From NCBI GenBank assembly GCA_041601615.1, contig JBFIHX010000008.1, positions 30,677-94,676 of the forward strand: DNA of 64,000 bases, written 5' to 3'. Below, one piece after another: positions 5,206-44,987 of the stretch. The notes beneath the pieces are model-generated. The model saw nothing but the letters and a program-made list of their open reading frames with translations. It ran no database searches and had not been told where the DNA came from. The DNA is from Thermoplasmatota archaeon (GTDB taxonomy: Archaea > Thermoplasmatota > E2 > JACPAO01 > JAHFTW01). Position 1 is the stretch's first letter, and every line of letters starts with the position of its first letter. Made by a program: the position numbers and the translations under genes.

Positions 5206-5586
5206 TCACTTGGAGCCGAACATCAAGACGAGCCCCATGACGCCAAGCGACGGGGCAACGACGAGGTTCAATGGATAATCCAGGAAGTAAACACTCGCAG
5301 GCACCAGGGCAAGGGCGGGCACGGCGAGGACACGCAGGAACGTCTGCATGCGTCGTTCTTTGCGCATGCGGTTGCTGACGCGCCCGGACGCCTTGGTGCC
5401 CGGCTTGTAATGGCGAAACCGGTGCTTGCGCTTCCCGTACAATTTCTTGCGTTTTCGGGGCTTTTCGGGCTTGACCTTGACCGGCCTTGCCAGCTCAGAG
5501 TCTTCTGCCCAAAGGTTGCTGGTGTGCAACGTGGACCCGGGGGCCATGGGAGCGTATTGCCCTTGGGTCAAAAAGGCGCTTGTCAC
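5206..5586 (-). CDS. small protein: basic N-terminal region plus C-terminal double-TM segment (hypothetical; start uncertain)
   Basis: This is the only plausible ORF in the gap at 5160-5690. It has a hydrophobic C-terminal ~45 aa. It may be shorter, starting at the internal Met MQTFLRVL. Confidence 0.25.
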   Translation of the reverse strand: MTSAFLTQGQYAPMAPGSTLHTSNLWAEDSELARPVKVKPEKPRKRKKLYGKRKHRFRHYKPGTKASGRVSNRMRKERRMQTFLRVLAVPALALVPASVYFLDYPLNLVVAPSLGVMGLVLMFGSK

Positions 5587-5691
5587 TTGTACGCAGGCCC
5601 AAAATCCCCAAAATCGAGCGGGTTTCGGGCCGATTTTCGCTGCATTGTGGCCACCGTTCCTCGGCCCAAGTCGCCAGCCATCCCAACCCGG

Positions 5692-6603
5692 TTACGCCGG
5701 ACCCACAGGCACCGGCGGAATGGATCGAACGAGACGGGCGCCGTGCGGCTCGACGCGGCTGCGAAGGATGCGTCCGTGTCCCTCAAGCAACGCCTCAGCG
5801 CGGTCGAGATCTCCGGGTGCGCCTTGGACCCAGAGCGTCGTCCCGAGCATGCACTGTCCCCAGTAGACATCCTCGGGCAATTGCTGACCCAATGCGACCA
5901 TGTGGTCGGGTCGAAGGCCGAGGGCGGTGCTGAACGTGGCCGCCTCGTGCAGAAGCTGCGTCCAAGCGGCTCCCCGCCCGGCTTCCAGCACGCGATCCAC
6001 GGCGGCGTCTCCGTGTCGGCGGGTGCGTTCCTTCCAGGAGTGGTCTTGGATGATGCTCTTGGTGCTGATTTCGCCGCCCAGCACGCAAAATAGGAATTCG
6101 GTCGCTTCGGGAACGGCAATTTGCATGGCCCAGCCGTGCGGGGGGCAGCCGGGGCGGATGCGGAGTTCGGCACCGCCAAACCAGGAGCCGACGGCGTCGC
6201 CAAGCCCTGCTCCGAGTTCCACTTCGGCAGCATGGGTGGCGGCGAGCGCATCTTCGGGTTCGCGGTCCAAGAGGCGGGCCGCCGCAAGGCAAGTGGCAAG
6301 CGTGCCGGCGGCACTCATTCCGAAGCCTTGGCCCAGGGGAAGTTGGATGTGGATGTCCACGTCGAAGAAGTCCTCGGGTGCCAGAATTTCAAGGGCGCGG
6401 CGCGTCACGGGTGCGTCGTGTTCTTCGCCGTTGATGCGCACGTCGTTTTGACCGGTCTCGTAAGGCAGCACACTGGCGTAGGCTCCTTTTTGCAGGCACC
6501 ATCCGCCGCCTCGGCTGCCGTTTTGCACGGGTTCGGCAAAGGCGTCGTGGACCGCAAAGAAGCCGGTGACATGGCCGGGGGCAAAGGCGCAGGCGCGGTT
6601 CAT
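5692..6603 (-). CDS. pantoate kinase (archaeal CoA pathway, GHMP-kinase family)
   Basis: GHVTGFF N-terminal signature, GHMP-kinase Gly-rich loop (PLGQGFGMSAAG), ~300 aa, adjacent to coaBC. Confidence 0.75.
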   Translation of the reverse strand: MNRACAFAPGHVTGFFAVHDAFAEPVQNGSRGGGWCLQKGAYASVLPYETGQNDVRINGEEHDAPVTRRALEILAPEDFFDVDIHIQLPLGQGFGMSAAGTLATCLAAARLLDREPEDALAATHAAEVELGAGLGDAVGSWFGGAELRIRPGCPPHGWAMQIAVPEATEFLFCVLGGEISTKSIIQDHSWKERTRRHGDAAVDRVLEAGRGAAWTQLLHEAATFSTALGLRPDHMVALGQQLPEDVYWGQCMLGTTLWVQGAPGDLDRAEALLEGHGRILRSRVEPHGARLVRSIPPVPVGPA

Positions 6604-7882: not shown

Positions 7883-8695
7883 GTGTCGCTGCGCGTGCGG
7901 AGGCACTTGATAAGTAGGCGCGGTTGTGCCTTGCGCGTGCCCATCACTGTCCACGAGACTGCCGAATTCGATGTCCAGGGAGGCGCGGTGATGGTGGCGT
8001 TTCCGAGTTTTGGCCTCGTGGGGACGTTGGCGGCCAATTTTTTGATCGAGCACTTGAAGCTCCAGGAAGTTGGGGCCTTGGACGGCGAGTCGTTCCCCAC
8101 ACTCGCGGTGGTGGAGGACGGAGAGCCGCTGTCGCCGATTCGTTTGTACTTTGGACACTTGGACGCAGCCAGTGCAGGCAGGACGCCGCTCGTGTTGGTG
8201 TTGTCGGAGTTCCAGCCAGATCCACCGATGGTGCATGAGTTGGCGGCGTCCTTGTTGCGTTGGAGCCACGACAAGGGCGCGGCACTAATGGTCAGCCCCG
8301 AGGGTTTGCTCGTGGAGGAGGACCCTAGCGGGCCCGATATGGAGGTGTTTGCGGCCGCGAGTTTGCCGGAGCTTCGGGAGCGGTTGCGTGGCCTGGGAAC
8401 GCCCTTGTTTCGCAACGGGCTGGTGACGGGAGTAACCGGCACGCTTCTTGCGATGGGCAAGCGCCAGGGCATGCCGATTGTGGGCGTGCTTGCGGAAGCG
8501 GTGCCCGATCAACCAGATGCGCGCAGTGCCGCCCAAGTGGTGACGTTGCTAGGTCGCTTGTTTGCGGTGGATTTGGACACTTCAGTCCTCCTGGCGGAAG
8601 CGGAGCGGTTTGAGGCGCGGGTGGCGGAGGCAATGCGGGTGCAGTTGACGCGGGACGGCGAGCGCGGCCACACGCAGTCGGTCATGTACGGATAG
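7883..8695 (+). CDS. PAC2-family (proteasome assembly chaperone-like, COG1938) protein
   Basis: AFPSFGLVGTLAANFLI core typical of archaeal PAC2. The true start may be the internal ATG at 7988. Confidence 0.65.
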   Translation: MSLRVRRHLISRRGCALRVPITVHETAEFDVQGGAVMVAFPSFGLVGTLAANFLIEHLKLQEVGALDGESFPTLAVVEDGEPLSPIRLYFGHLDAASAGRTPLVLVLSEFQPDPPMVHELAASLLRWSHDKGAALMVSPEGLLVEEDPSGPDMEVFAAASLPELRERLRGLGTPLFRNGLVTGVTGTLLAMGKRQGMPIVGVLAEAVPDQPDARSAAQVVTLLGRLFAVDLDTSVLLAEAERFEARVAEAMRVQLTRDGERGHTQSVMYG

Positions 8696-8762
8696 CACTT
8701 CGAGGCATGGCGGCGCCGGAGCCGTTGGGACCGCTTTTCTGTCCGACCCGTGTCCCCGCTTC

Positions 8763-10661
8763 GTGGAGTACGCGGCCCTGGTGGATCACTTCGAGCGCAT
8801 GGATGCGACGACGAAGCGACTCGAGATGACCGCGATTCTTGCCGAGGCGCTTGATGATCTTGGCCGGGAGGAAGTGGAACCGGCACTTCGGCTCATGCAG
8901 GGCAAGGTCGCGCCGGATTGGGAAGGCATCGAATTGGGTCTTGCCGAGAAGCTCGTGTTGCAAGTGCTGGCCCGTGCCGCCGGCCTCAATGTCAAGGCGG
9001 GTGGGGTGGCGCAGGCCACCAAGATATACCACGACGAGGGAGACCTGGGGCTCGCCGCACAACGCCTCATGGAACAAAAAGGCGGTGCTGCACAAGTGGG
9101 GCTTTTTTCATTCCAAAACGAAGCAACTGCATCACTTAGTGTTACAGAAGTATTCAATCGCCTCAAATCCATTGCTTTGGTGCAAGGGCAGGGAAGCCAG
9201 GACGAAAAGCAACAACTGCTATGGAAGCTCCTGTCCGACGCTGGACCCCGCGAAGCCAAGTACATCGTGCGCACCGTCGCCGGACGCTTGCGCCTCGGTG
9301 TCGCGGACATGACGTGCCTCGATGCGCTTACTGCATGGCACCGAAGACAACCGGTTCGATCCGTCACCGAAATGGAGCCCGAGGAACGCGCCACCCACGA
9401 AGATGTGCGCCGCCGCATCGAACGCGCCTTCGACCTGCGTAGCGACTTGCCGTTTGTGGCCCGCACGCTTGCCGAGGGCGGACTGGACGCCATCGACGAA
9501 GTGCAAGTGCAACACGGCACGCCGCTTCGCCCCATGGCAGCCGAGCGCTTGAAGACCCTAGGCGAAATTCTCGAAAAACACGAGGGCCGCTCCGCCTTGG
9601 AATACAAGTACGACGGTCTGCGCGTGCAAGCGCACGTCAGCGCCGACCCGAGTGTCCCCGTCAAGCTGTTTAGCCGCCGCATGGAAGACCTCACAGCGCA
9701 ATTTCCAGACGTTCAACAGTACCTCCGGGCCGCACTCAAGGGAAAAAGCGCCATCGTGGAAGGCGAATGCGTCGCAATGGACCGCGCCACGGGACGCATG
9801 AGGCCGTTTCAGGAAGTCAGCCGCAGGCGAGGGCGCAAGACCGGCCTCGGAGAAGATGCGCGCCAGGAATCCGCGCTGGCCGACGGAGCCGCCACCACCA
9901 CGAACATGATGGACGAAGTGCCCGTCACTGTGTTTTTGTTCGATTGCATGGCCGTCGACGGCCAATCCGTGATGCACGAGGGCTACCAGACCCGCCGCGA
10001 CCGCATCCCGCACGTCTTCCGACTCGGTGACGAAGTCATGTTGTCCACCATGAGCATCACGGAAGACGAAGGCGCCATGGAGACGTTCTTTCAACAAGCC
10101 GTGCAAGACGGCGCCGAGGGCGTCATGGCCAAGGCACTCGACGCGCCGTACAAGGCCGGCAACCGAGGCTTTGACTGGATCAAATACAAGACCGATTACA
10201 CCGAGGATCTCGTGGACACCATGGACCTCGTGGCCATTGGTGCATTCTACGGTCGCGGCCGCCGCGCCGGTTGGTACGGGGCTCTTCTCATGGCTGCCTA
10301 CGACCCGGACTCGGACACCTACGCCAGTGTCTGCAAGCTCGGCACTGGCTTCGACGACGCCACCTTGATGGGCCTCAAGGACAAATTCGCCCCGCACCAA
10401 AGCGAGACGAAGCCCGCCGGCGTCGACAGCGACATGGTGCCCGACGTTTGGTTCCAACCATCCGTTGTCATGGAAGTGCAAGCCGCCGAATTGACCTTGA
10501 GCCCGACGCACCGCGCCGGATGGGGCAGCATAAAAGAAGGCGCCGGGCTCGCTGCGCGTTTCCCTCGGTTTACGGTGTGGAGAGAGGACAAATCGCCGCA
10601 GCAGGCGACGACTGTGGGAGAAATTCAGGGAATGTACGAGATGCAAGGACAAACCACCTAG
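8763..10661 (+). CDS. lig: ATP-dependent DNA ligase
   Basis: Adenylation motif EYKYDGLRVQAH (KxDG). Length and domain order are those of archaeal/eukaryal ligases. Confidence 0.9.
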   Translation: MEYAALVDHFERMDATTKRLEMTAILAEALDDLGREEVEPALRLMQGKVAPDWEGIELGLAEKLVLQVLARAAGLNVKAGGVAQATKIYHDEGDLGLAAQRLMEQKGGAAQVGLFSFQNEATASLSVTEVFNRLKSIALVQGQGSQDEKQQLLWKLLSDAGPREAKYIVRTVAGRLRLGVADMTCLDALTAWHRRQPVRSVTEMEPEERATHEDVRRRIERAFDLRSDLPFVARTLAEGGLDAIDEVQVQHGTPLRPMAAERLKTLGEILEKHEGRSALEYKYDGLRVQAHVSADPSVPVKLFSRRMEDLTAQFPDVQQYLRAALKGKSAIVEGECVAMDRATGRMRPFQEVSRRRGRKTGLGEDARQESALADGAATTTNMMDEVPVTVFLFDCMAVDGQSVMHEGYQTRRDRIPHVFRLGDEVMLSTMSITEDEGAMETFFQQAVQDGAEGVMAKALDAPYKAGNRGFDWIKYKTDYTEDLVDTMDLVAIGAFYGRGRRAGWYGALLMAAYDPDSDTYASVCKLGTGFDDATLMGLKDKFAPHQSETKPAGVDSDMVPDVWFQPSVVMEVQAAELTLSPTHRAGWGSIKEGAGLAARFPRFTVWREDKSPQQATTVGEIQGMYEMQGQTT

Positions 10662-10777
10662 CATCGGCCCAATTCAACACCTCCCTCTCCATTTATGCAC
10701 CCCCTAGAGTAGCCGCCGGGGTGGGTTTGACCAAGATTCGCCTGTCTCGGTTGCGTGACGAGGTGCGGGCATTGCAG

Positions 10778-11608
10778 ATGCGATTGTCGGAGATAGAGCG
10801 CAAGCTTGCCAAGAAAAGCGATGATGCGCAGGCCATGAACGCGCTGACGTCGGCGCAGGATTATTGCGTGGAAGCAGAAAAATCGGCGAAGGCTGGAGAC
10901 TTGCAACGGGGCTGGAAGAAGGTGCACCGGGCCCGCGAGGCGTTGGTGTGTACGATGCAGCCGGTGCAGGTGCGCCTGGAGGCCGATGATTTGCTGCGCC
11001 GAGCCGCCTATTTGGATGTTGAAAAGAATCAGCTCTTGCAGCAATGGTTGAGCCAAGGCCTGGAAGCATTGCCCTTGGAGGACCAGCGGCGCACGGTGCG
11101 GCGGGCACTCAACCTGCACAACGAGCACTGGGATGTATTCTACCAAGCGGCGCGATTGACCGATGCGCGATTGCGCAGTCTTTCAGGGATGCTGATGATT
11201 GCCACCGCGGGCGCCATAGCAGCGGCATCCGTGGGTGGTCTTGAGTTGGTTCCAGGAATGGCAGGCGGCACGTTTGCGGCCATCGTCGTCTTGCTGGGCC
11301 TCGTCGGCGGTAGCACGAGTGCGTTGGTGGCCACCATCACGGGCTCCACGGATCGAATTCTGCCCATGCATACCATCGATAGTTCCTGGAGCGTCCTGCG
11401 AACACCGTTTGGCGGATCCAGCGCATTGCTGGTGGTCCTGGCACTGGGCGGCGGCATGCTCGGAGTCACCGTGGAAACGGCCCAGGGATACTACGTCTGG
11501 GCGGCGGTTGCCGGTTTCAGCGAGGGACTCTTCGTGCGCTTGGCCGCCGGCATCGCGGGACGGTTTGGCACGGAGCGATCTGCGGATGACCGGGTGATTG
11601 ACGCGTAG
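10778..11608 (+). CDS. membrane protein with N-terminal coiled-coil and C-terminal Gly/Ala-rich TM helices (hypothetical)
   Basis: The ORF 10271..11608 overlaps the ligase. The start was re-placed at ATG 10778 (GTG 10721 is also possible). Hydrophobic helices begin at GMLMIATAGAIAAASVGG. Confidence 0.5.
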   Translation: MRLSEIERKLAKKSDDAQAMNALTSAQDYCVEAEKSAKAGDLQRGWKKVHRAREALVCTMQPVQVRLEADDLLRRAAYLDVEKNQLLQQWLSQGLEALPLEDQRRTVRRALNLHNEHWDVFYQAARLTDARLRSLSGMLMIATAGAIAAASVGGLELVPGMAGGTFAAIVVLLGLVGGSTSALVATITGSTDRILPMHTIDSSWSVLRTPFGGSSALLVVLALGGGMLGVTVETAQGYYVWAAVAGFSEGLFVRLAAGIAGRFGTERSADDRVIDA

Positions 11609-12048
11609 CGCAAAGCGATTCGCACGAAATTTGGAAGCCACTCTGGGCAACCGGCGATCTAGTTGATTCGAGGCACAGGACTCTTCACCCTCATGCCGGC
11701 TCCGTCCGAGAGTCCTATCAAGGCCAGCAAGACAGGGACCTCGAGCTGAGCGCCAGGCCGCGGACGCCGCGCCTCCCCCCCCAACCCATCCCGAGTGCCT
11801 CTTCGACCTCGGCCAGACGCTGAACCATTTTGATTCATTTCTCATCTTTTTAATGGGGTTTATCCGAGCAAGCCAATCCCCCATTCAACCATATATCCAC
11901 TATATCTAGTGGAATAATGCCCGAATATTGGTAGGTATTCCCCCATCCGCCTTTACAGCGGAAAAATACTCGAAGAGTCGAGGATATTGGGCCAACAGAA
12001 GCATATATCAGCATAAGGTCCATGATGGTGCTGTCTGATACAGACTAG

Positions 12049-12267
12049 GTGAACAACATGGCCAAGACGCTACCCACCGTGCTTCTCGCACTATCACTGC
12101 TTGCCCTCACATGTGCCGCCCCAGTCGATGCATACGGCGCCTGCGTTGGGATCTGCATCGATGTCGCCGACACCAATGGCGACGGTGAGTACCGCGTTCA
12201 AACATGCACCGGAAACGTGAACGTCCAAGTGGGCCTGAGCAACGAAGCCCATTTCTGCGGGAACTGA
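12049..12267 (+). CDS. small secreted Cys-containing peptide (signal peptide plus ~44-aa mature part)
   Basis: Sec-type signal LLALSLLALTCAAPVDA. The mature part has 5 Cys and a NVNVQVGLSNEAHFCG motif shared with the two following genes. An AT-rich promoter region lies upstream. Confidence 0.5.
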   Translation: MNNMAKTLPTVLLALSLLALTCAAPVDAYGACVGICIDVADTNGDGEYRVQTCTGNVNVQVGLSNEAHFCGN

Positions 12268-12277
12268 GGCGGTTCAA

Positions 12278-12778
12278 ATGAGCCCACTTCTCACATGGGG
12301 CAGCACGACACTGCTTCTCGTCGCCGCATCGCTTGGATTGTCCCTCGTGGACAACGCATCGGACCCCGAAGCCCCTACCTCGATGACTGAAGCACTCCCG
12401 CCGCTGGACTCGACCGGCGGCGAGCACGAGTCGTTTGACCTATTGACAACGATTCATGGACACTTGGATTTCGACCTTCCAGAACATGCAACAGGTTGGG
12501 CGACTGCGACGCTGGCACCACTCGATTCTACTCCAGTGCGAAGCGACCGCAGCCTCTGCATCAAGCTCGTTCGACTCGAGCCCTCCCCTGTAACGCTTCG
12601 CCAATCCGGTCAATGCGGAATGAACGTCAACGTGCAATCGAACTTGGATTTTGGCGACCAAACCGTATTCGAGACAGATCTTGCCGAACTAGACCCCGGG
12701 CAATACCGCCTTGAATTCGAGGCGGACCCGCAAGCAGCGACCCTCCAATTTGTGGTTGCCTGGGAGATTGCACAATGA
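12278..12778 (+). CDS. secreted hypothetical protein carrying the CGMNVNVQSNLDFGD variant motif
   Basis: Signal peptide TTLLLVAASLGLSL. It is 11 nt downstream of the previous gene and overlaps the next gene by 4 nt (operon-like). Confidence 0.5.
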   Translation: MSPLLTWGSTTLLLVAASLGLSLVDNASDPEAPTSMTEALPPLDSTGGEHESFDLLTTIHGHLDFDLPEHATGWATATLAPLDSTPVRSDRSLCIKLVRLEPSPVTLRQSGQCGMNVNVQSNLDFGDQTVFETDLAELDPGQYRLEFEADPQAATLQFVVAWEIAQ

Positions 12779-13086
12779 ACAGTTGGGTACTCGCAACAGC
12801 GCTTGCCTTGGTAGCTCTCGCGGCCCCAGCGTCGGCCGATCAAGAAGCCAGCGACGGAGCTTGCGAGAATGAGGTGGTGGTCCAGTATGACCTGCGCCAC
12901 AACGAGAAACACTGCAGCAGTTGCACATTCATGATCATCATCCAGGTGGGTCTGGATAACGATACATCATGCAGAGACATCTGCATGTACAACGTCTTCA
13001 TACAGGTTGGGTTGGGCCATAATTTTGTTCATTGTGGATCTCTCCCCGTTGACCTCGTGTCACACGTACAAGCAACGATTCCCTAG
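12775..13086 (+). CDS. small secreted Cys-rich protein with two copies of the [IV]-x-[IV]-Q-V-G-L motif
   Basis: Signal peptide ALALVALAAPASA. Motifs MIIIQVGLDNDTSC and NVFIQVGLGHNFVHCG. 7 Cys. Confidence 0.5.
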   Translation: MNSWVLATALALVALAAPASADQEASDGACENEVVVQYDLRHNEKHCSSCTFMIIIQVGLDNDTSCRDICMYNVFIQVGLGHNFVHCGSLPVDLVSHVQATIP

Positions 13087-13159
13087 ATTCAAGGGCATCC
13101 GAACGCACCCAATTCTTGGAAGCTGGTGCTTTCCAAGGCGACCCTTGGTGATGAACCGT

Positions 13160-14725
13160 TCACCCTAGGGCACTTCGATGCACCAAGCTCTTCGCCGTCA
13201 TCTCAGCCCCAATCGGGAGCCCCATCAAATCCAGCAACGTCGGAGCAACGTTGCACAGCGCCCCGCCGGAGCGAAGCGAGACCCCTACGCCCGCGTGGAC
13301 GGCGATGAGTGGACTGGGTTCCATGCTGTGCGCCGTGACGCGGTCTCCGCGCCCTCCGTCGTCGGCGACTTTGCACATTTCTTCGCAGTTGCCGTGGTCG
13401 CTGGTGATGAGGACGAGGTAGCCGAGTTCGCCCGCCACGGAGACGAGGCGGTTGAGGCAGTTGTCCATGAATTCCATCATTTGGACTGCGGCATCGAGGT
13501 TGCCGGTGTGGCCGACCATGTCGGGGTTGGCGTAGTTGACGACCATGAGATCGTAGTCTTCGCTGCCCATGGCATGGAGGAGTCGATCGGTGACTTCGCC
13601 TGCGTTCATTTCGGGTTGCAGGTCGTAGGTGGCGACTTGGGGGCTGGGGATGAGGATTCGGTCTTCTCCTTCGAATGGAGTTTCGCGGCCGCCACTGAAA
13701 AAGTAGGTGACGTGGGCGTATTTTTCGGTCTCCGCGATGCGCAATTGACGCATGCCAAGGCCCGCGATGTGTTCGCCGAGCGTGCCGGTGGGGCGGGAGG
13801 GCGGGTAGGCGATGTGGATGCCGGGCCAGGCGACGAAAGCGTCGTCGTATTGCGTGGTGCATACCCAGAGGAGGTTGCTGGGCGGCGTCCGGTCGAATCC
13901 CGTGAAGGCTGGGTCCATGAAGGCGCGGGTCATTTCGCGGGACCGATCGGGTCGGAAGTTGAGCCAGATGCAGGCGTCCCCTTCGCGCACGGCACCGTTG
14001 GGATCGATGCGGGTGGCGGCTGCAAATTCGTCGTCCTCGCCGGCAAGGTACGCGGCGGCAAGAGCGGCTTGGGCGTCTGGTGCGTCCCGAGTGGCGGCGG
14101 CTCCGGTGTACAAGTCGTAGGCGGACTGCACGCGCTCCCAGCGCTGGTCGCGGTCCATGGCGTAGTATCGGCCCACGATGTCGGCGATGGTGCCGTTGTT
14201 AGCCCGGGTCATTTGGGTCGTGAGGGTGTCGAGGAAGCCGGCGGCGCTGCGGGGGTCCGTGTCGCGGCCGTCGAGGATGGGGTGGACGAACACCTCGTCG
14301 ATGCGGGCACTTGCAGCGGCTTTGAGGGCGGCGGCAAAGTGGTCTTCGTGGGCGTGGACGCCGCCGGGGCCTAGGAGCCCGAAGAGGTGCAGCCGTCCGC
14401 CGGTGCTGCGAACATGATCGAAGGCGGCTTGGTAGGCATCGTTGTTGCCAAATTCGGTGTCCTCGATTGCCTTGTTGATGCGCAAAAAGTCCTGGTAGAC
14501 GATGCGTCCGGCGCCGATGTTCAAGTGCCCCACTTCGGAGTTGCCCATCTGGCCTTCGGGCAAGCCAACGTGGTGCTGGTTGTTGTCGATAAACGTCCAG
14601 GGCGACTCGGCGCGCAGCTTGTCGAGCGTCGGCGTGTTGGCCAGTTCCACGGCGTTGCAGGGGTGATCGGGGTCGCCGAATCCAAAGCCGTCAAGAATCA
14701 CCAGAAGAGCTGGGCGGTGGGCCAC
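13160..14725 (-). CDS. gpmI: 2,3-bisphosphoglycerate-independent phosphoglycerate mutase
   Basis: LVILDGFGFGD N-terminal motif and full-length iPGM architecture. The ORF is over-extended to 14887. The start was re-placed at GTG 14725 (VAHRPALLVILDG), which is uncertain. Confidence 0.8.
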   Translation of the reverse strand: MAHRPALLVILDGFGFGDPDHPCNAVELANTPTLDKLRAESPWTFIDNNQHHVGLPEGQMGNSEVGHLNIGAGRIVYQDFLRINKAIEDTEFGNNDAYQAAFDHVRSTGGRLHLFGLLGPGGVHAHEDHFAAALKAAASARIDEVFVHPILDGRDTDPRSAAGFLDTLTTQMTRANNGTIADIVGRYYAMDRDQRWERVQSAYDLYTGAAATRDAPDAQAALAAAYLAGEDDEFAAATRIDPNGAVREGDACIWLNFRPDRSREMTRAFMDPAFTGFDRTPPSNLLWVCTTQYDDAFVAWPGIHIAYPPSRPTGTLGEHIAGLGMRQLRIAETEKYAHVTYFFSGGRETPFEGEDRILIPSPQVATYDLQPEMNAGEVTDRLLHAMGSEDYDLMVVNYANPDMVGHTGNLDAAVQMMEFMDNCLNRLVSVAGELGYLVLITSDHGNCEEMCKVADDGGRGDRVTAHSMEPSPLIAVHAGVGVSLRSGGALCNVAPTLLDLMGLPIGAEMTAKSLVHRSALG

Positions 14726-14823
14726 GGGGCGGCGACGGTGCAGGTGTTGTTCAAGGTTGGGAAGCGCTGGGCTCAAGTTCGTCCACCAAAAAGACCAACA
14801 ACCGCAAAGTTTCGGCGCCTCGC

Positions 14824-15858
14824 ATGCGCGTCGTGGTGGCCTTGGCCCTGATCGTGGTCGGTTTTGCCGGGTGCAGTGAAGAAACAACTCCTTTGGTCCT
14901 CGACGAGGAACCAGCGCCTACCGTGGTTACGGACCCGAGTGATTATTCCTACAACACGACCCGCCAGCACATCCACGACTACTGGAACGACCAGCAGAGC
15001 ATAGAGGTGTTCTCGAAGACGAAGTCGATCGGCACCATTGTGTTCGACGACTATGAAGACGAAGAGGTGCGCGGAGATACGGACCAGGTCATTCCGCAAG
15101 GAGCCAAGTGGGTCAACATCACCATGGACTGGGACCTGAATGAGCCGCGCATCTACAGCGCGACCGAATTGTGGCTGCGCACCGCCAAGGAGACCGAGCC
15201 GTTCCTAGTGGGCCCCATCGAAGACGGCGAGACGGTGACGTTCCTGAGCGACAACGGCCACGACGACCTGCCGCACCAGCGACTGAGTGCTTGGATGTTC
15301 ATTCTGCGCTTCTACAGCGACGTGGCGGACCACATCCTCACCCAAGGCACCGTGGACGTGACGGTGACGGCGGCGCGAGGCTTGGAAATTCCCGTCTATC
15401 CTGGACACCCAGACCAATGGAAGGATGCCACGGAATTGCCCTTGTTGGAGCATGAAGGAAATGTGGGCATGGACACGGGCCCCCACTCGGTTGCTGGAGT
15501 TGGCGCCGGCCACTGGTGCTTGTTCCAGTGCTTTGGAATCCTGCGGCTGGACGACGGCGCCATTGTTCCGTACAACACGAGCATGGTCGAGGTGGTGTTG
15601 AGCGAAAGTTCCGGCACTTCCACTCCGACTCTGCCTGGCCTGATGTTCCACGGCGCCGATACACTCGAATGGACCCTACTGGAACCCTCCGAGCAATCTG
15701 GCTCCACGCGGACGTATCAAATCGAAGTGCTCCCCGGAGCCGGCGACGGCGCCTACGCCCAGCAGAGCTTATGGGAATTCCATGTGGTCATCGATGAACC
15801 GGTGCCGAATGGAGTGTTCGTTGGATCCTTTGATTTGAAGGCGAGGGCGATTCGCTAA
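14824..15858 (+). CDS. secreted lipoprotein, hypothetical
   Basis: Signal peptide plus lipobox-like VVGFAGC. Acidic mature protein with no recognised domain. Confidence 0.55.
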   Translation: MRVVVALALIVVGFAGCSEETTPLVLDEEPAPTVVTDPSDYSYNTTRQHIHDYWNDQQSIEVFSKTKSIGTIVFDDYEDEEVRGDTDQVIPQGAKWVNITMDWDLNEPRIYSATELWLRTAKETEPFLVGPIEDGETVTFLSDNGHDDLPHQRLSAWMFILRFYSDVADHILTQGTVDVTVTAARGLEIPVYPGHPDQWKDATELPLLEHEGNVGMDTGPHSVAGVGAGHWCLFQCFGILRLDDGAIVPYNTSMVEVVLSESSGTSTPTLPGLMFHGADTLEWTLLEPSEQSGSTRTYQIEVLPGAGDGAYAQQSLWEFHVVIDEPVPNGVFVGSFDLKARAIR

Positions 15859-15888
15859 CCTCGCAGCCCCCGACGCGGTGCTGTTGTG

Positions 15889-16428
15889 TCAGGGAGCCGC
15901 CAAATTCCAGGTCTGGACGCGCTCATACTCGGGCCCCTCGGGTCCGAGGCGACTCTGGAAAAGCACGACCTCGGCCAGAGGGCCTTGCCAGAACGGCCCT
16001 GGGAATTCTTGGAGCAAGTTGCGCAGATCCTGAGGCCGCTTGCACCGAGCAAGCGTGATGTGCGGGACAAATTGCCGGCTTGCTTCTGGTTGGCCAAGCG
16101 ATTGCGTCGCCGCCACGATTCGCTGCTGCAGCGCGCGCAGCGGCTCCGCCTCCAAGTTGGCCCAGACAATGCGGGCATGGCGCGGGTCTTGGAACATCCC
16201 AAGGTGCCGAATTGCGCCGTCCATGGCTTGGGCGTCTTTCACCGCGGCCCCAACGGCGGTACGGATGGCTTCCCTGTCGCTCGATTCCTCCACGTCGCCA
16301 AAAAACCGCAGCGTCACGTGCTCCGTGCCCTCCGGAACCGGCCGCACGCCATCCAGCCGCTGCAACGTATTTCGTACCGGACCCAGGACATCCGCGCAGG
16401 AGACCGGCAGGCCAACAAACAAGCGCAC
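15889..16428 (-). CDS. thpR: RNA 2',3'-cyclic phosphodiesterase (2H family, LigT/ThpR)
   Basis: Two H-x-T-L motifs (HVTLRF, HITLAR). 179 aa. Confidence 0.8.
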   Translation of the reverse strand: MRLFVGLPVSCADVLGPVRNTLQRLDGVRPVPEGTEHVTLRFFGDVEESSDREAIRTAVGAAVKDAQAMDGAIRHLGMFQDPRHARIVWANLEAEPLRALQQRIVAATQSLGQPEASRQFVPHITLARCKRPQDLRNLLQEFPGPFWQGPLAEVVLFQSRLGPEGPEYERVQTWNLAAP

Positions 16429-17996: not shown

Positions 17997-18230
17997 ATGC
18001 GAACCATCGCCATCCTCCTAGCAAGCATGTTCGTCCTCCTGGGCGCCTTCAGCACCACTGCAAGCGCCAGCCATGACTGCGACAAGAGCCGCGACGTAGA
18101 CGCCACACTCGTCAAAGTACACGTCGAGTACGACGTCGTCTGCGCCAGCCTCGAAGTGTCCCGCTGCACCCTCTACAGCGACCCCGAATACCCCTCGCAC
18201 CCCTACTGGCGCTGCGAGCGCGTTCTCTAG
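17997..18230 (+). CDS. small secreted Cys-containing protein (77 aa, hypothetical)
   Basis: Signal peptide MRTIAILLASMFVLLGAFSTTASA. 5 Cys. Confidence 0.35.
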   Translation: MRTIAILLASMFVLLGAFSTTASASHDCDKSRDVDATLVKVHVEYDVVCASLEVSRCTLYSDPEYPSHPYWRCERVL

Positions 18231-42551: not shown

Positions 42552-42872
42552 TTAGCAGAGGCCAACGCGAACGGGGCTCGTGTCGACGTACAGTTCGTTG
42601 CCGTAGCAGGTGTAGGAGTTGCCGTCGCAGTAGTAGCTGGTCCACGGGTAGTACACGTTCAGGGGGCCGTCGACGTAGGTGCGGTAGCTGTAGCAGCTGC
42701 TCGGGAAGTCGTAGTACGTGGTGCATGTCCGGACTAGGGAATCGCCGGTCAAGGGATCGTACAAGATTGGCGAGTTGCAGTACGTGGTGTGCGTGGCAGA
42801 TGCCGGCGAAATCATCAGCATGGTTCCGACGAGCAGCATTCCTAGCAGCAGGGGTTTGAGTATGGAGTTCAT
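42552..42872 (-). CDS. small secreted Tyr/Cys-rich protein, tandem paralog 1 (106 aa; ~80-aa mature part with 6 Cys and ~17 Tyr)
   Basis: Signal peptide MNSILKPLLLGMLLVGTMLMISPASA. 75-80% identical to the two paralogs downstream on this strand. Confidence 0.65.
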   Translation of the reverse strand: MNSILKPLLLGMLLVGTMLMISPASATHTTYCNSPILYDPLTGDSLVRTCTTYYDFPSSCYSYRTYVDGPLNVYYPWTSYYCDGNSYTCYGNELYVDTSPVRVGLC

Positions 42873-43457: not shown

Positions 43458-43775
43458 CTAGCAGACGCCAACGCGAGCAGGGTTCGTGTCGACGTACAGC
43501 GTGTTCTGGTAGCAGGTGTAGCTGTTGCCGTCGCAGTTGTAGTTCCTCCACGGGTAGTACACGTTCGTGGGACCATCGATGTAGCTGCGGGAGTAGTAGC
43601 AGCTGCTAGGGTAGTTGTAGTAGGTGGTGCACGTCCGAATCGGGTCACCAGTCAAGGGGTCGTACACGATGGGCGAGCCGCAGTACGTGTAGTGGCTGGC
43701 AGAAGCCGGCGAAATCATCAGCACGGTTCCGACGAGGAGCATTCCGAGTAGCAGGGGTTTGAGTATGGAGTTCAT
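43458..43775 (-). CDS. small secreted Tyr/Cys-rich protein, tandem paralog 2 (105 aa)
   Basis: Same signal peptide and Cys spacing as paralog 1. Confidence 0.65.
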   Translation of the reverse strand: MNSILKPLLLGMLLVGTVLMISPASASHYTYCGSPIVYDPLTGDPIRTCTTYYNYPSSCYYSRSYIDGPTNVYYPWRNYNCDGNSYTCYQNTLYVDTNPARVGVC

Positions 43776-44154: not shown

Positions 44155-44475
44155 CTAGCAGAGGCCAACGCGAACGGGGCTCGTGTCGACGTACACTTCG
44201 TTCTGGTAGCAAGTGTAGCTGTTGCCGTCGCAGTAGTAGTTGGTCCACGGGTAGTACACGTTCACGGGGCCATCAACGTAGGTGCGGTAGTAGTAGCAGC
44301 TGCTAGGGTAGTTGTAGTAGGTGGTGCAGATTGTGACCATCGGATCGCCTGTCAAGGGATCGTACACAAGGGGCGGATTGCAGTACGTCGTGTGGTTGGC
44401 GGAAGCCGGCGTAATCATCAGCACGGTTCCAACGAGCAGCATTGCGAGTAGCAGGGGTTTGAGTATGGAGTTCAT
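44155..44475 (-). CDS. small secreted Tyr/Cys-rich protein, tandem paralog 3
   Basis: Starts at MNSILKPLLLAMLLVGTVLMITPASA. The ORF track allows 3 extra codons up to 44484. Confidence 0.65.
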   Translation of the reverse strand: MNSILKPLLLAMLLVGTVLMITPASANHTTYCNPPLVYDPLTGDPMVTICTTYYNYPSSCYYYRTYVDGPVNVYYPWTNYYCDGNSYTCYQNEVYVDTSPVRVGLC

Positions 44476-44987
44476 ACAATTCATTCATGCCAAATACCAA
44501 TATAAGTTTGGCTCGGGATTTTTGATAATTGGCCCAATATCAATGGTCGATGTAGCCCCCATATAGTTTACTATTTAGTTTTTTATCCAAGGATTGGGGA
44601 CGCACCCAATATACCTGCCTTCAGCGACGAATGGCCCAGTGGAGTCGCCGGCCGGTTGCGAGCCCAGCAGCAATTGAGCAAGTCCGCCATCTTTGAAAGC
44701 GGCATCACTGCGAGCACAGGAGGTGCTGTCTCTACAGAGGCGTCCGCTGAATGCCAGCGCCGTCGGTAGGACCCAGGTCGTTCATCCATTCATGATTGAA
44801 TCGCAGTTGTTTGCGGGTCCAAGGCCAAATGCAGGGGCCCGAAGCGCAGATTTCCCTTACAAGCGCGCCAACAAGCGCCGTGCGATCCTTGCCCCGCGCT
44901 CCTCTACAAAACCAGAACCACCCAATGGTTGACGGCCCGCCCCTCCCCCCCACAACCTTCACGACCCCACCTAGACCTCCACGCCCC

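Follow-up and report, generated by a model that had tools for sequence, protein, structure and literature searches.

The chaplins of Streptomyces comprise the short ChpD-H and the long ChpA-C proteins (Pfam PF03777), and the curlin repeat of CsgA (S-x5-Q-x-G-x-G-N-x-A-x3-Q) occurs in five copies and contains no Cys. Among archaeal peptides, halocin C8 is derived from a 283-aa precursor that is exported by twin-arginine translocation (Tat); cleavage of this precursor yields the immunity protein HalI together with a peptide of 76 aa, and halR and ATP-binding cassette (ABC) transporter genes flank the halocin gene (doi 10.64898/2026.07.27.741052). A small locus that recalls each of these systems in part was analysed in a 64 kb stretch of DNA (64,000 nt; referred to as the window) from an uncultured Thermoplasmatota archaeon. 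It consists of three genes, designated P1, P2 and P3, on the plus strand. These are real genes and form an accessory three-gene operon. By profile comparison, P1 and P3 are related through a common module of 17-18 residues with Cys at both ends (CxGx[VI]xVQVG[LV]xNx3-4C) and belong to one previously undescribed protein family.

The first-pass annotation of the window had described three co-directional, tightly spaced or overlapping genes, and the open reading frames (ORFs) were found as described and are called likewise by public gene callers (Table 1). For P1, the ORF given as 12049-12267 exists; the callers start it at ATG 12058 (69 aa), which is better than GTG 12049 because a Shine-Dalgarno (SD)-like AGGTGA (12047-12052) lies 5 nt upstream of it. 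The ATG of P2 is preceded by GAGG at a distance of 8 nt, and the ATG of P3 shares the sequence ATGA (12775-12778) with the stop codon of P2. Owing to these SD sites and the ATGA overlap, P1-P2-P3 were assigned to one translationally coupled operon. Three assemblies share the identical sequence, namely one NCBI metagenome-assembled genome (MAG; GCA_041635295.1) and the Logan assemblies of two sequencing runs.

P1 carries one canonical module, preceded by a degenerate unit (CxGxC[VI][ED]V...VQTC), and the segment VQTCxGNVNVQVG is invariant across the three known members of the P1 family. The motif strings quoted in the first-pass annotation are all exact. In P3, two copies had been noted; a third copy, the first in order (CENEVVVQYDLRHNEKHC), had been missed, and in the aligned P3 family three such units (C-x-G-x-[VI]-x-V-Q-V-G-[LV]-x-N-x3-C) follow one another, separated by two or three linking residues. 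The pattern C-x2-[NM]-[VI]-x-[VI]-Q has four matches when the 64 kb are translated in six frames, and none of the four falls outside P1, P2 and P3; QVGL also occurs four times, with three occurrences in the islet ORFs. A back-translated, degenerate DNA version of the motif was observed once, in P1, whereas 0.00 occurrences were expected from 100 shuffles of the window. Chance is further contradicted by the conservation of the motif in the homologues of P1 and P3. P1 matches each of two P3 repeats in BLASTP searches (E 0.003), and an hhalign comparison of the mature P1 family with the mature P3 family (signal peptides removed) gave a probability of 89.5% (E 1.9e-6, score 35.8); the highest score among 100 column-shuffled controls was 20.1, so that none reached the observed value.

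P2 had been credited with a degenerate form of the motif. The string CGMNVNVQSNL is indeed present, but its residues are not conserved: the P2 homologues have CDGTLSVAPEA and CGGAGSVSVEG at this position, and only C-x-G-x3-V is common to all. Profile comparisons between P2 and P1 or P3 returned E values of 0.02-0.17, with the best local alignment always on this segment; on these values and on the lack of conservation, P2 was ruled out as a carrier of the module.

The module is a new sequence family, as judged by its lack of matches in the libraries searched, and the earlier statement that no described family is recognisable was borne out by library, PDB-sequence and Foldseek searches alike. 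Pfam scans at E<=1 and E<=10 found no match for P1, P3 or their homologues; among the models of anti-phage defence (PADLOC) and phage (PHROGs) proteins, the single match, in PHROGs, was at the level of the signal peptide (E 0.05), and PDB sequence profiles yielded noise only, with no match at E<=10 including CsgA. By eye, P1 (GN-VNVQV-GL-S-N-E-A...C) resembles the C-terminal half of the chaplin domain (GN-TINVI-GL-L-N-P-A...C; CGNTINVIGLLNPAFGNHC) and repeat R5 of CsgA (VNVTQVGFGNNA). For comparison, hhalign was run against real csgA and real chaplin genes (from Streptomyces plasmids; six chaplin domains), and it picked exactly the segments noted by eye. The scores were low: E 0.014 with a probability of 3% for the P1 family against the six chaplin domains, E 0.33 for the P3 family, and E 0.073-0.22 against CsgA. 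Column shuffles matched the observed score in 12/200 cases for the chaplins and in 8/200 cases for CsgA. Membership in the chaplin family (PF03777) was rejected, as the ChpA-C hidden Markov model (HMM) found no match and the profile score is at chance level; membership in the curlin family (PF07012) was rejected likewise, with no match to the Curlin_rpt HMM or to PDB curli and hhalign scores at chance level. Distant homology to these bacterial functional-amyloid subunits, which the likeness by eye and its recovery by hhalign would suggest, is extremely unlikely in view of the same E values, shuffles and negative HMM and PDB searches.

The resemblance can nevertheless be described feature by feature. 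Like P1 and P3, chaplins are small Sec-secreted proteins (ca. 45-60 mature residues), and one-domain and multi-domain paralogues are encoded near each other in both cases. On inspection, and as a resemblance only, the chaplin and P1 families have two Cys bracketing the C-terminal half, the spacing GN-x5-GL-x-N-x-A and a C-x-N end. The chaplin domain differs in its length of about 40 aa from the 17-18-aa unit found here; the chaplin examined for charge is neutral, whereas the islet proteins are strongly acidic; and the islet has no sortase-type anchor and an archaeal host. Curli (CsgA/CsgB), like the islet, have tandem strand-turn-strand repeats of about 20 residues with Q-x-G-x-x-N-x-A as the sole common pattern, a paralogous pair of subunits and a lipoprotein encoded in the system. 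CsgA, however, lacks Cys, csgE/F/G-like genes are not among the islet neighbours, and the curli fold is a beta-arc solenoid, whereas the two-residue G-L turn of the islet proteins would imply antiparallel hairpins, as judged from the P3 model. That the islet encodes a disulfide-stapled archaeal analogue, and not a homologue, of functional-fibre systems such as chaplins or curli is an improbable reading, drawn from analogy. At the cell surface, P1 with its single module would then polymerise by the stacking of hairpins, nucleated or anchored by the three-module P3, and P2, which is a lipoprotein in other lineages, would serve as a tether or chaperone. If true, this would amount to a previously unknown extracellular matrix or coat for uncultured Thermoplasmatota.

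When 5.8 billion protein clusters were searched by word index, each of P1, P2 and P3 retrieved itself only. An exhaustive phmmer search with mature P3 against 1.84 billion representatives gave six matches: P3 itself, three giant repeat proteins and two genuine relatives, P0006 (143 aa) and P0007 (139 aa), which have the same architecture and 45-48% identity (E ca. 1e-5). The giant proteins (P0004, P0005 and P0008) were rejected as spurious, their scores being sums of matches of about 8 bits to unrelated repeats (HYR-like and others); P0008 contains no Cys. Their whole-sequence E values, down to 5.5e-41, arose purely from the addition of 10-32 weak domain matches, and for short Cys/Val-rich queries such values should not be trusted unless the per-domain scores are checked.

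The genes of P0006 and P0007 are located on the Logan contigs L013 and L014, where a homologue of P3 is followed by a homologue of P1, a further gene (X) and a homologue of P2. The P3 homologues match the window P3 with E values of 3.7e-9 and 1.9e-9. The P1 homologues carry VQTCAGNVNVQVG[LI]xN[ED]AxYC and match the window P1 by tblastn with E values of 7.7e-9 and 2.2e-8, and the P2 homologue of L013 was matched at E 2e-4, P2 having diverged to ca. 25% identity between lineages. The P2 homologues are lipoproteins by their LAGC lipobox. X is a fourth Cys-rich protein, predicted to be secreted (L013:5969-6271 and L014:2254-2535), with the segments WYYPPxVYQAWC and DCPCPHCP, and the P3 homologues have an additional C-terminal Cys-rich domain (PCPPQLPxxNFxCHxV...DFCLW); neither X nor this domain has a match in Pfam or NCBIfam, and X has none in PDB sequences. 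Homologues of P1, P2 and P3, together with X, are thus clustered in both contigs. The order P1-(X)-P2 is collinear in all three lineages (61%, 66% and 73% G+C), while P3 lies upstream in L013 and L014 and downstream in the window. In the window as in L013 and L014, the family can be defined by a signal peptide and at least one module, encoded beside a P2-type all-beta protein. All proteins of the cluster form singleton clusters, and the gene set is a real but very rare accessory family of three lineages.

Further sources were scanned for relatives. In the JGI metagenomes, a scan with the P1 alignment gave no confirmed match, and all of the 36 matches to the back-translated motif appeared chance-like once translated. 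In IMG/VR, no relative was confirmed by the alignment scan; a single match to the motif (L056) was not counted as a member. Separately, giant marine proteins with collagen-like GTSGTSG tracts, encoded on TARA and other contigs (L036, L038, L041, L042, L045, L050 and L053), each contain one CYGDIIVQVGTGNYC segment that fits the module; with a single copy per protein and no further similarity, this is probably a coincidence.

The differences between the three lineages raise the question of whether the window holds a rearranged and reduced remnant of a four-gene cluster, decaying or without function. The gene order is rotated (P1-P2-P3 as opposed to P3-P1-X-P2), no gene for X is present, P3 ends without the C-terminal domain of its homologues, and the lipobox Cys is absent from P2. 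Against this, each of the three ORFs is intact, SD sites and translational coupling are in place, every Cys and core motif residue of P1 and P3 is kept in the homologues, and the sequence is the same in the three assemblies mentioned above; decay is very unlikely.

The secretion of small Cys proteins that had been proposed for the locus was supported by signal peptides, which were judged visually and by a rough filter for hydrophobicity. P1 has a predicted signal peptide of about 25 aa and an acidic mature part of 44 aa with 4 Cys, and P3 one of about 21 aa and an acidic mature part of 82 aa with 6 Cys; P2 has a predicted N-terminal hydrophobic signal or anchor and 2 conserved Cys. The signal peptides of P1-P3 contain no twin-arginine. 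All mature products are acidic (pI 4.1-4.9) with even Cys counts (4, 6, 10, 2, 6), which fits fully disulfide-bonded extracellular proteins. Mature P3 was modelled with AlphaFold2 from an alignment of three sequences, with a mean predicted local distance difference test (pLDDT) score of 75 and a predicted template modelling score (pTM) of 0.65; the block means of pLDDT are 83-91 for residues 11-60 and 75 for residues 61-70. The model contains six strands, two per repeat, separated by a G-L turn of two to four residues, which gives three beta-hairpins, and the pTM suggests that these pack as one compact domain. Weak, non-significant Foldseek matches of P3 in the PDB were headed by endoglin, with left-handed beta-helix proteins lower down. 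The P2 model matched only generic beta-sandwiches (TM 0.35-0.45), and P2 is an all-beta, probably sandwich-type protein unrelated to P1 and P3.

Repeated disulfide-closed hairpin loops are found in Bowman-Birk-type inhibitors. With its invariant turn, the repeated hairpin, bracketed by a disulfide, could likewise present the loop VQVG-L-x-N to a ligand, and P1 and P3 would then be multi-headed protease inhibitors or metal or small-molecule binders of another kind; genes for an extracellular M28-type peptidase and for other lipoproteins lie nearby, both in the window and in the related loci. The proteins have no similarity to any inhibitor family, though, and most of the conserved residues belong to the strands (V-x-V-Q-V) of the model rather than to an exposed loop. 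Apart from CxxC at the repeat junctions, neither P1 nor P3 shows an arrangement of His, Met or Cys that would be typical of a metal site. Ligand binding of this type was considered unlikely.

The genomic setting of the islet is variable. A cassette of 1.57 kb (Table 1) has no counterpart in the sister genome L004, whose ligase is 91% identical and whose synteny with the window spans 8003-11604 and 13176-14740 (blastn). In its place, L004 has a 780-bp segment with a gene for a 202-aa Cys-rich protein, predicted to be secreted. The same slot, between the gene of a 295-aa membrane protein and iPGM, is occupied by one such gene in L004 (L004:11090-11698) and by two paralogues in L005 (L005:4833-5510 and 5574-6281). 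Their products resemble the islet proteins in having a signal peptide and many Cys (12-14), and segments such as C..GEVGAEVHAG..S...C loosely recall the module; they differ in their length of about 170 mature residues. This slot family has no Pfam match, and its homology with P1-P3 was rejected because profile comparison showed nothing significant apart from the signal peptide. The context in L013 and L014 is not that of the window: the cluster lies between the genes of an Lhr-type helicase and a membrane protein and, in L013, amid lipoprotein genes. From the variable slot and these different contexts it follows that the gene set is accessory and relocatable, and that it occupies a hypervariable slot of the secretome.

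Such a location would also suit antagonism of the archaeocin type, in which P1, and perhaps P3 and X, would be Sec-secreted, disulfide-stabilised toxins and a membrane-tethered P2 the immunity protein of the producer. The products are small, secreted and rich in Cys, the family is very rare and patchy with three lineages only, sister genomes hold another Cys-rich secreted gene in the same hypervariable slot, and the G+C content of the cassette is below that of the genome. The co-transcribed partner P2 is a lipoprotein in the homologues, and the lantibiotic immunity proteins NisI and SpaI are lipoproteins too. As in halocin C8, a small Cys-rich secreted archaeal peptide would be accompanied by a possible protective partner. 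The likeness ends there: the islet precursors measure 69-166 aa and have neither a Tat motif nor an N-terminal immunity (HalI) domain, and, in contrast to the halC8 locus, no gene for an ABC transporter or a regulator adjoins the islet. No match was found in the islet proteins to the halocin C8 models TIGR04449 (halocin_C8_dom) and PF22862 (Hac8_like_N) or to the bacteriocin families of Pfam and NCBIfam. All products are acidic and not amphipathic-cationic. The core of P1 is invariant across lineages of 61-73% G+C, whereas P2 is only ca. 25% identical, unlike a co-evolving toxin-immunity pair. The tripling of the module in P3 also disfavours an antimicrobial function, because a repeat protein would account for it better than a toxin peptide would. 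The suggestion that P1 is an antimicrobial peptide had been based on size and Cys content only and found no support, there being no halocin or bacteriocin match, only acidic products and no adjoining transporter, processing or regulator gene. Antagonism as a whole was regarded as somewhat unlikely.

We tentatively favour, as a possibility, a reading in which the products have a joint role outside the cell, forming a unit for binding or assembly that is associated with the surface. It is preferred because one- and three-module paralogues are co-encoded, because the core is strongly constrained and the proteins are acidic, and because export, processing and immunity machinery is not present. P2 would be located at the membrane surface as a membrane-proximal partner, and the disulfide-stabilised hairpin modules of P3 would form a compact stack. 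The single-module P1 could associate with P3, or with a target, through its invariant VQTCxGNVNVQVG face, and the module would be a structural or recognition element and not a membrane-active toxin. The strain variability of the locus is usual for cell-surface and interaction genes and so fits this reading.

Several observations weigh against a surface-associated unit. The interaction of P1, P2 and P3 is inferred from co-occurrence only, and a variable, patchy locus of low G+C content fits a conflict system equally well. No family match for the islet proteins was obtained from Pfam, NCBIfam, PADLOC, PHROGs or PDB sequences, and a Foldseek search of the P3 model against the PDB and BFVD yielded nothing significant. 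The P3 model was built on three sequences only; the P2 model, eight-stranded and all-beta, is poor (pLDDT 57). The window P2 has no lipobox Cys, the window P3 has no C-terminal Cys-rich domain of the kind seen in its homologues, and the window has no X, so that its copy of the cluster may be a reduced version.

The secretomes of uncultured archaea are almost entirely uncharacterised. Two things are defined by the locus: a conserved cluster of three to four genes for secreted proteins, and a compact, well conserved hairpin unit bracketed by Cys, for which neither the sequence collections (Pfam, NCBIfam, PDB) nor the fold libraries (PDB and viral) contain a relative. Should this module serve self-assembly, adhesion or antagonism, it would represent a new archaeal cell-surface or interaction system and a small, stable scaffold of possible biotechnological use. 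As the family has been seen in three lineages only, its immediate importance is modest.

Table 1. Coordinates of the islet genes, modules and associated features in the window.
Feature	Position	Strand	Description
P1	12058..12267	+	69 aa from ATG 12058; alternative GTG start 12049
P2	12278..12778	+	166 aa
P3	12775..13086	+	103 aa
P1 canonical module	12205..12258	+	CTGNVNVQVGLSNEAHFC; x4 before last Cys
P3 repeat 1	12862..12915	+	CENEVVVQYDLRHNEKHC; degenerate copy
P3 repeat 2	12922..12972	+	CTFMIIIQVGLDNDTSC
P3 repeat 3	12982..13035	+	CMYNVFIQVGLGHNFVHC
P2 motif-like segment	12614..12646	+	CGMNVNVQSNL; modelled pLDDT <50, low-confidence loop
AT-rich upstream region	11811..12057	+	43.7% G+C; TATA-like stretches TTTTTAATGG, CATATATCC, GCATATATCAGCATAAGG; presumed archaeal promoter and leader
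Possible structured leader	12016..12066	+	small hairpin enclosed by pairing of an upstream CCAUG with CAUG at the P1 start codon
Cassette	11605..13175		1.57 kb without counterpart in sister genome L004 (blastn); 55% G+C compared with 61% for the window

The islet is flanked by the conserved gene of the 295-aa membrane protein, which ends at 11608, and by the convergent iPGM gene (13160-14887, minus strand). The ATP-dependent DNA ligase gene is another neighbour, and the nearest relatives of this ligase, at 55-91% identity, are found in Thermoplasmatota MAGs. No transporter, processing, regulator or immunity-type gene adjoins the islet among the annotated neighbours. The spacer upstream of P1 (450 bp) had been described as AT-rich, which holds only for its 3' part of about 245 bp; the 5' part (11609-11810) has 63% G+C. 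The AT-rich part is presumed to be an archaeal promoter and leader on account of its TATA-like stretches.

The pairing at the start codon of P1 is repeated upstream of the P1 homologues (L013:5672-5722 and L014:1936-1983), with an enclosed stem whose sequence differs by lineage. RNAalifold predicted 13 pairs from the three leader sequences, four of them with changes on both sides, and the single-sequence z values were -1.4, -0.9 and -3.6. On this weak evidence, the leader pairing may serve to control translation or may be due to chance. A terminator-like hairpin downstream of P3 was no better than shuffled sequences (z -1.2).

A second insertion relative to L004 is located at 14741-15987 of the window, where L004 has about 107 bp. 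The gene at 14824-15858 (plus strand) encodes a lipoprotein-like protein of 344 aa (N-terminus MRVVVALALIVVGFAGC) with no match in Pfam or PADLOC. Elsewhere in the window, three tandem paralogues of 105-109 aa are encoded at 42552-42872, 43458-43775 and 44155-44484 (all minus strand); each has a signal peptide and 6 Cys and is rich in Tyr (...YCNSPILYDPLTGD...CDGNSYTCY...VRVGLC). Two further ORFs, at 17997-18230 (plus strand; 77 aa) and 23326-23090 (minus strand; 78 aa), each encode a protein with 4 Cys and an N-terminus resembling a signal peptide. The 64 kb contain at least five small secreted Cys-rich ORFs besides the islet, so that a lineage-specific cluster of this kind is not unusual for this genome, and these ORFs and the islet suggest that its set of small secreted proteins rich in disulfides is expanded. 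Together with the strain-variable slot, they suggest a diversified extracellular disulfide-rich toolkit in this lineage of Thermoplasmatota.

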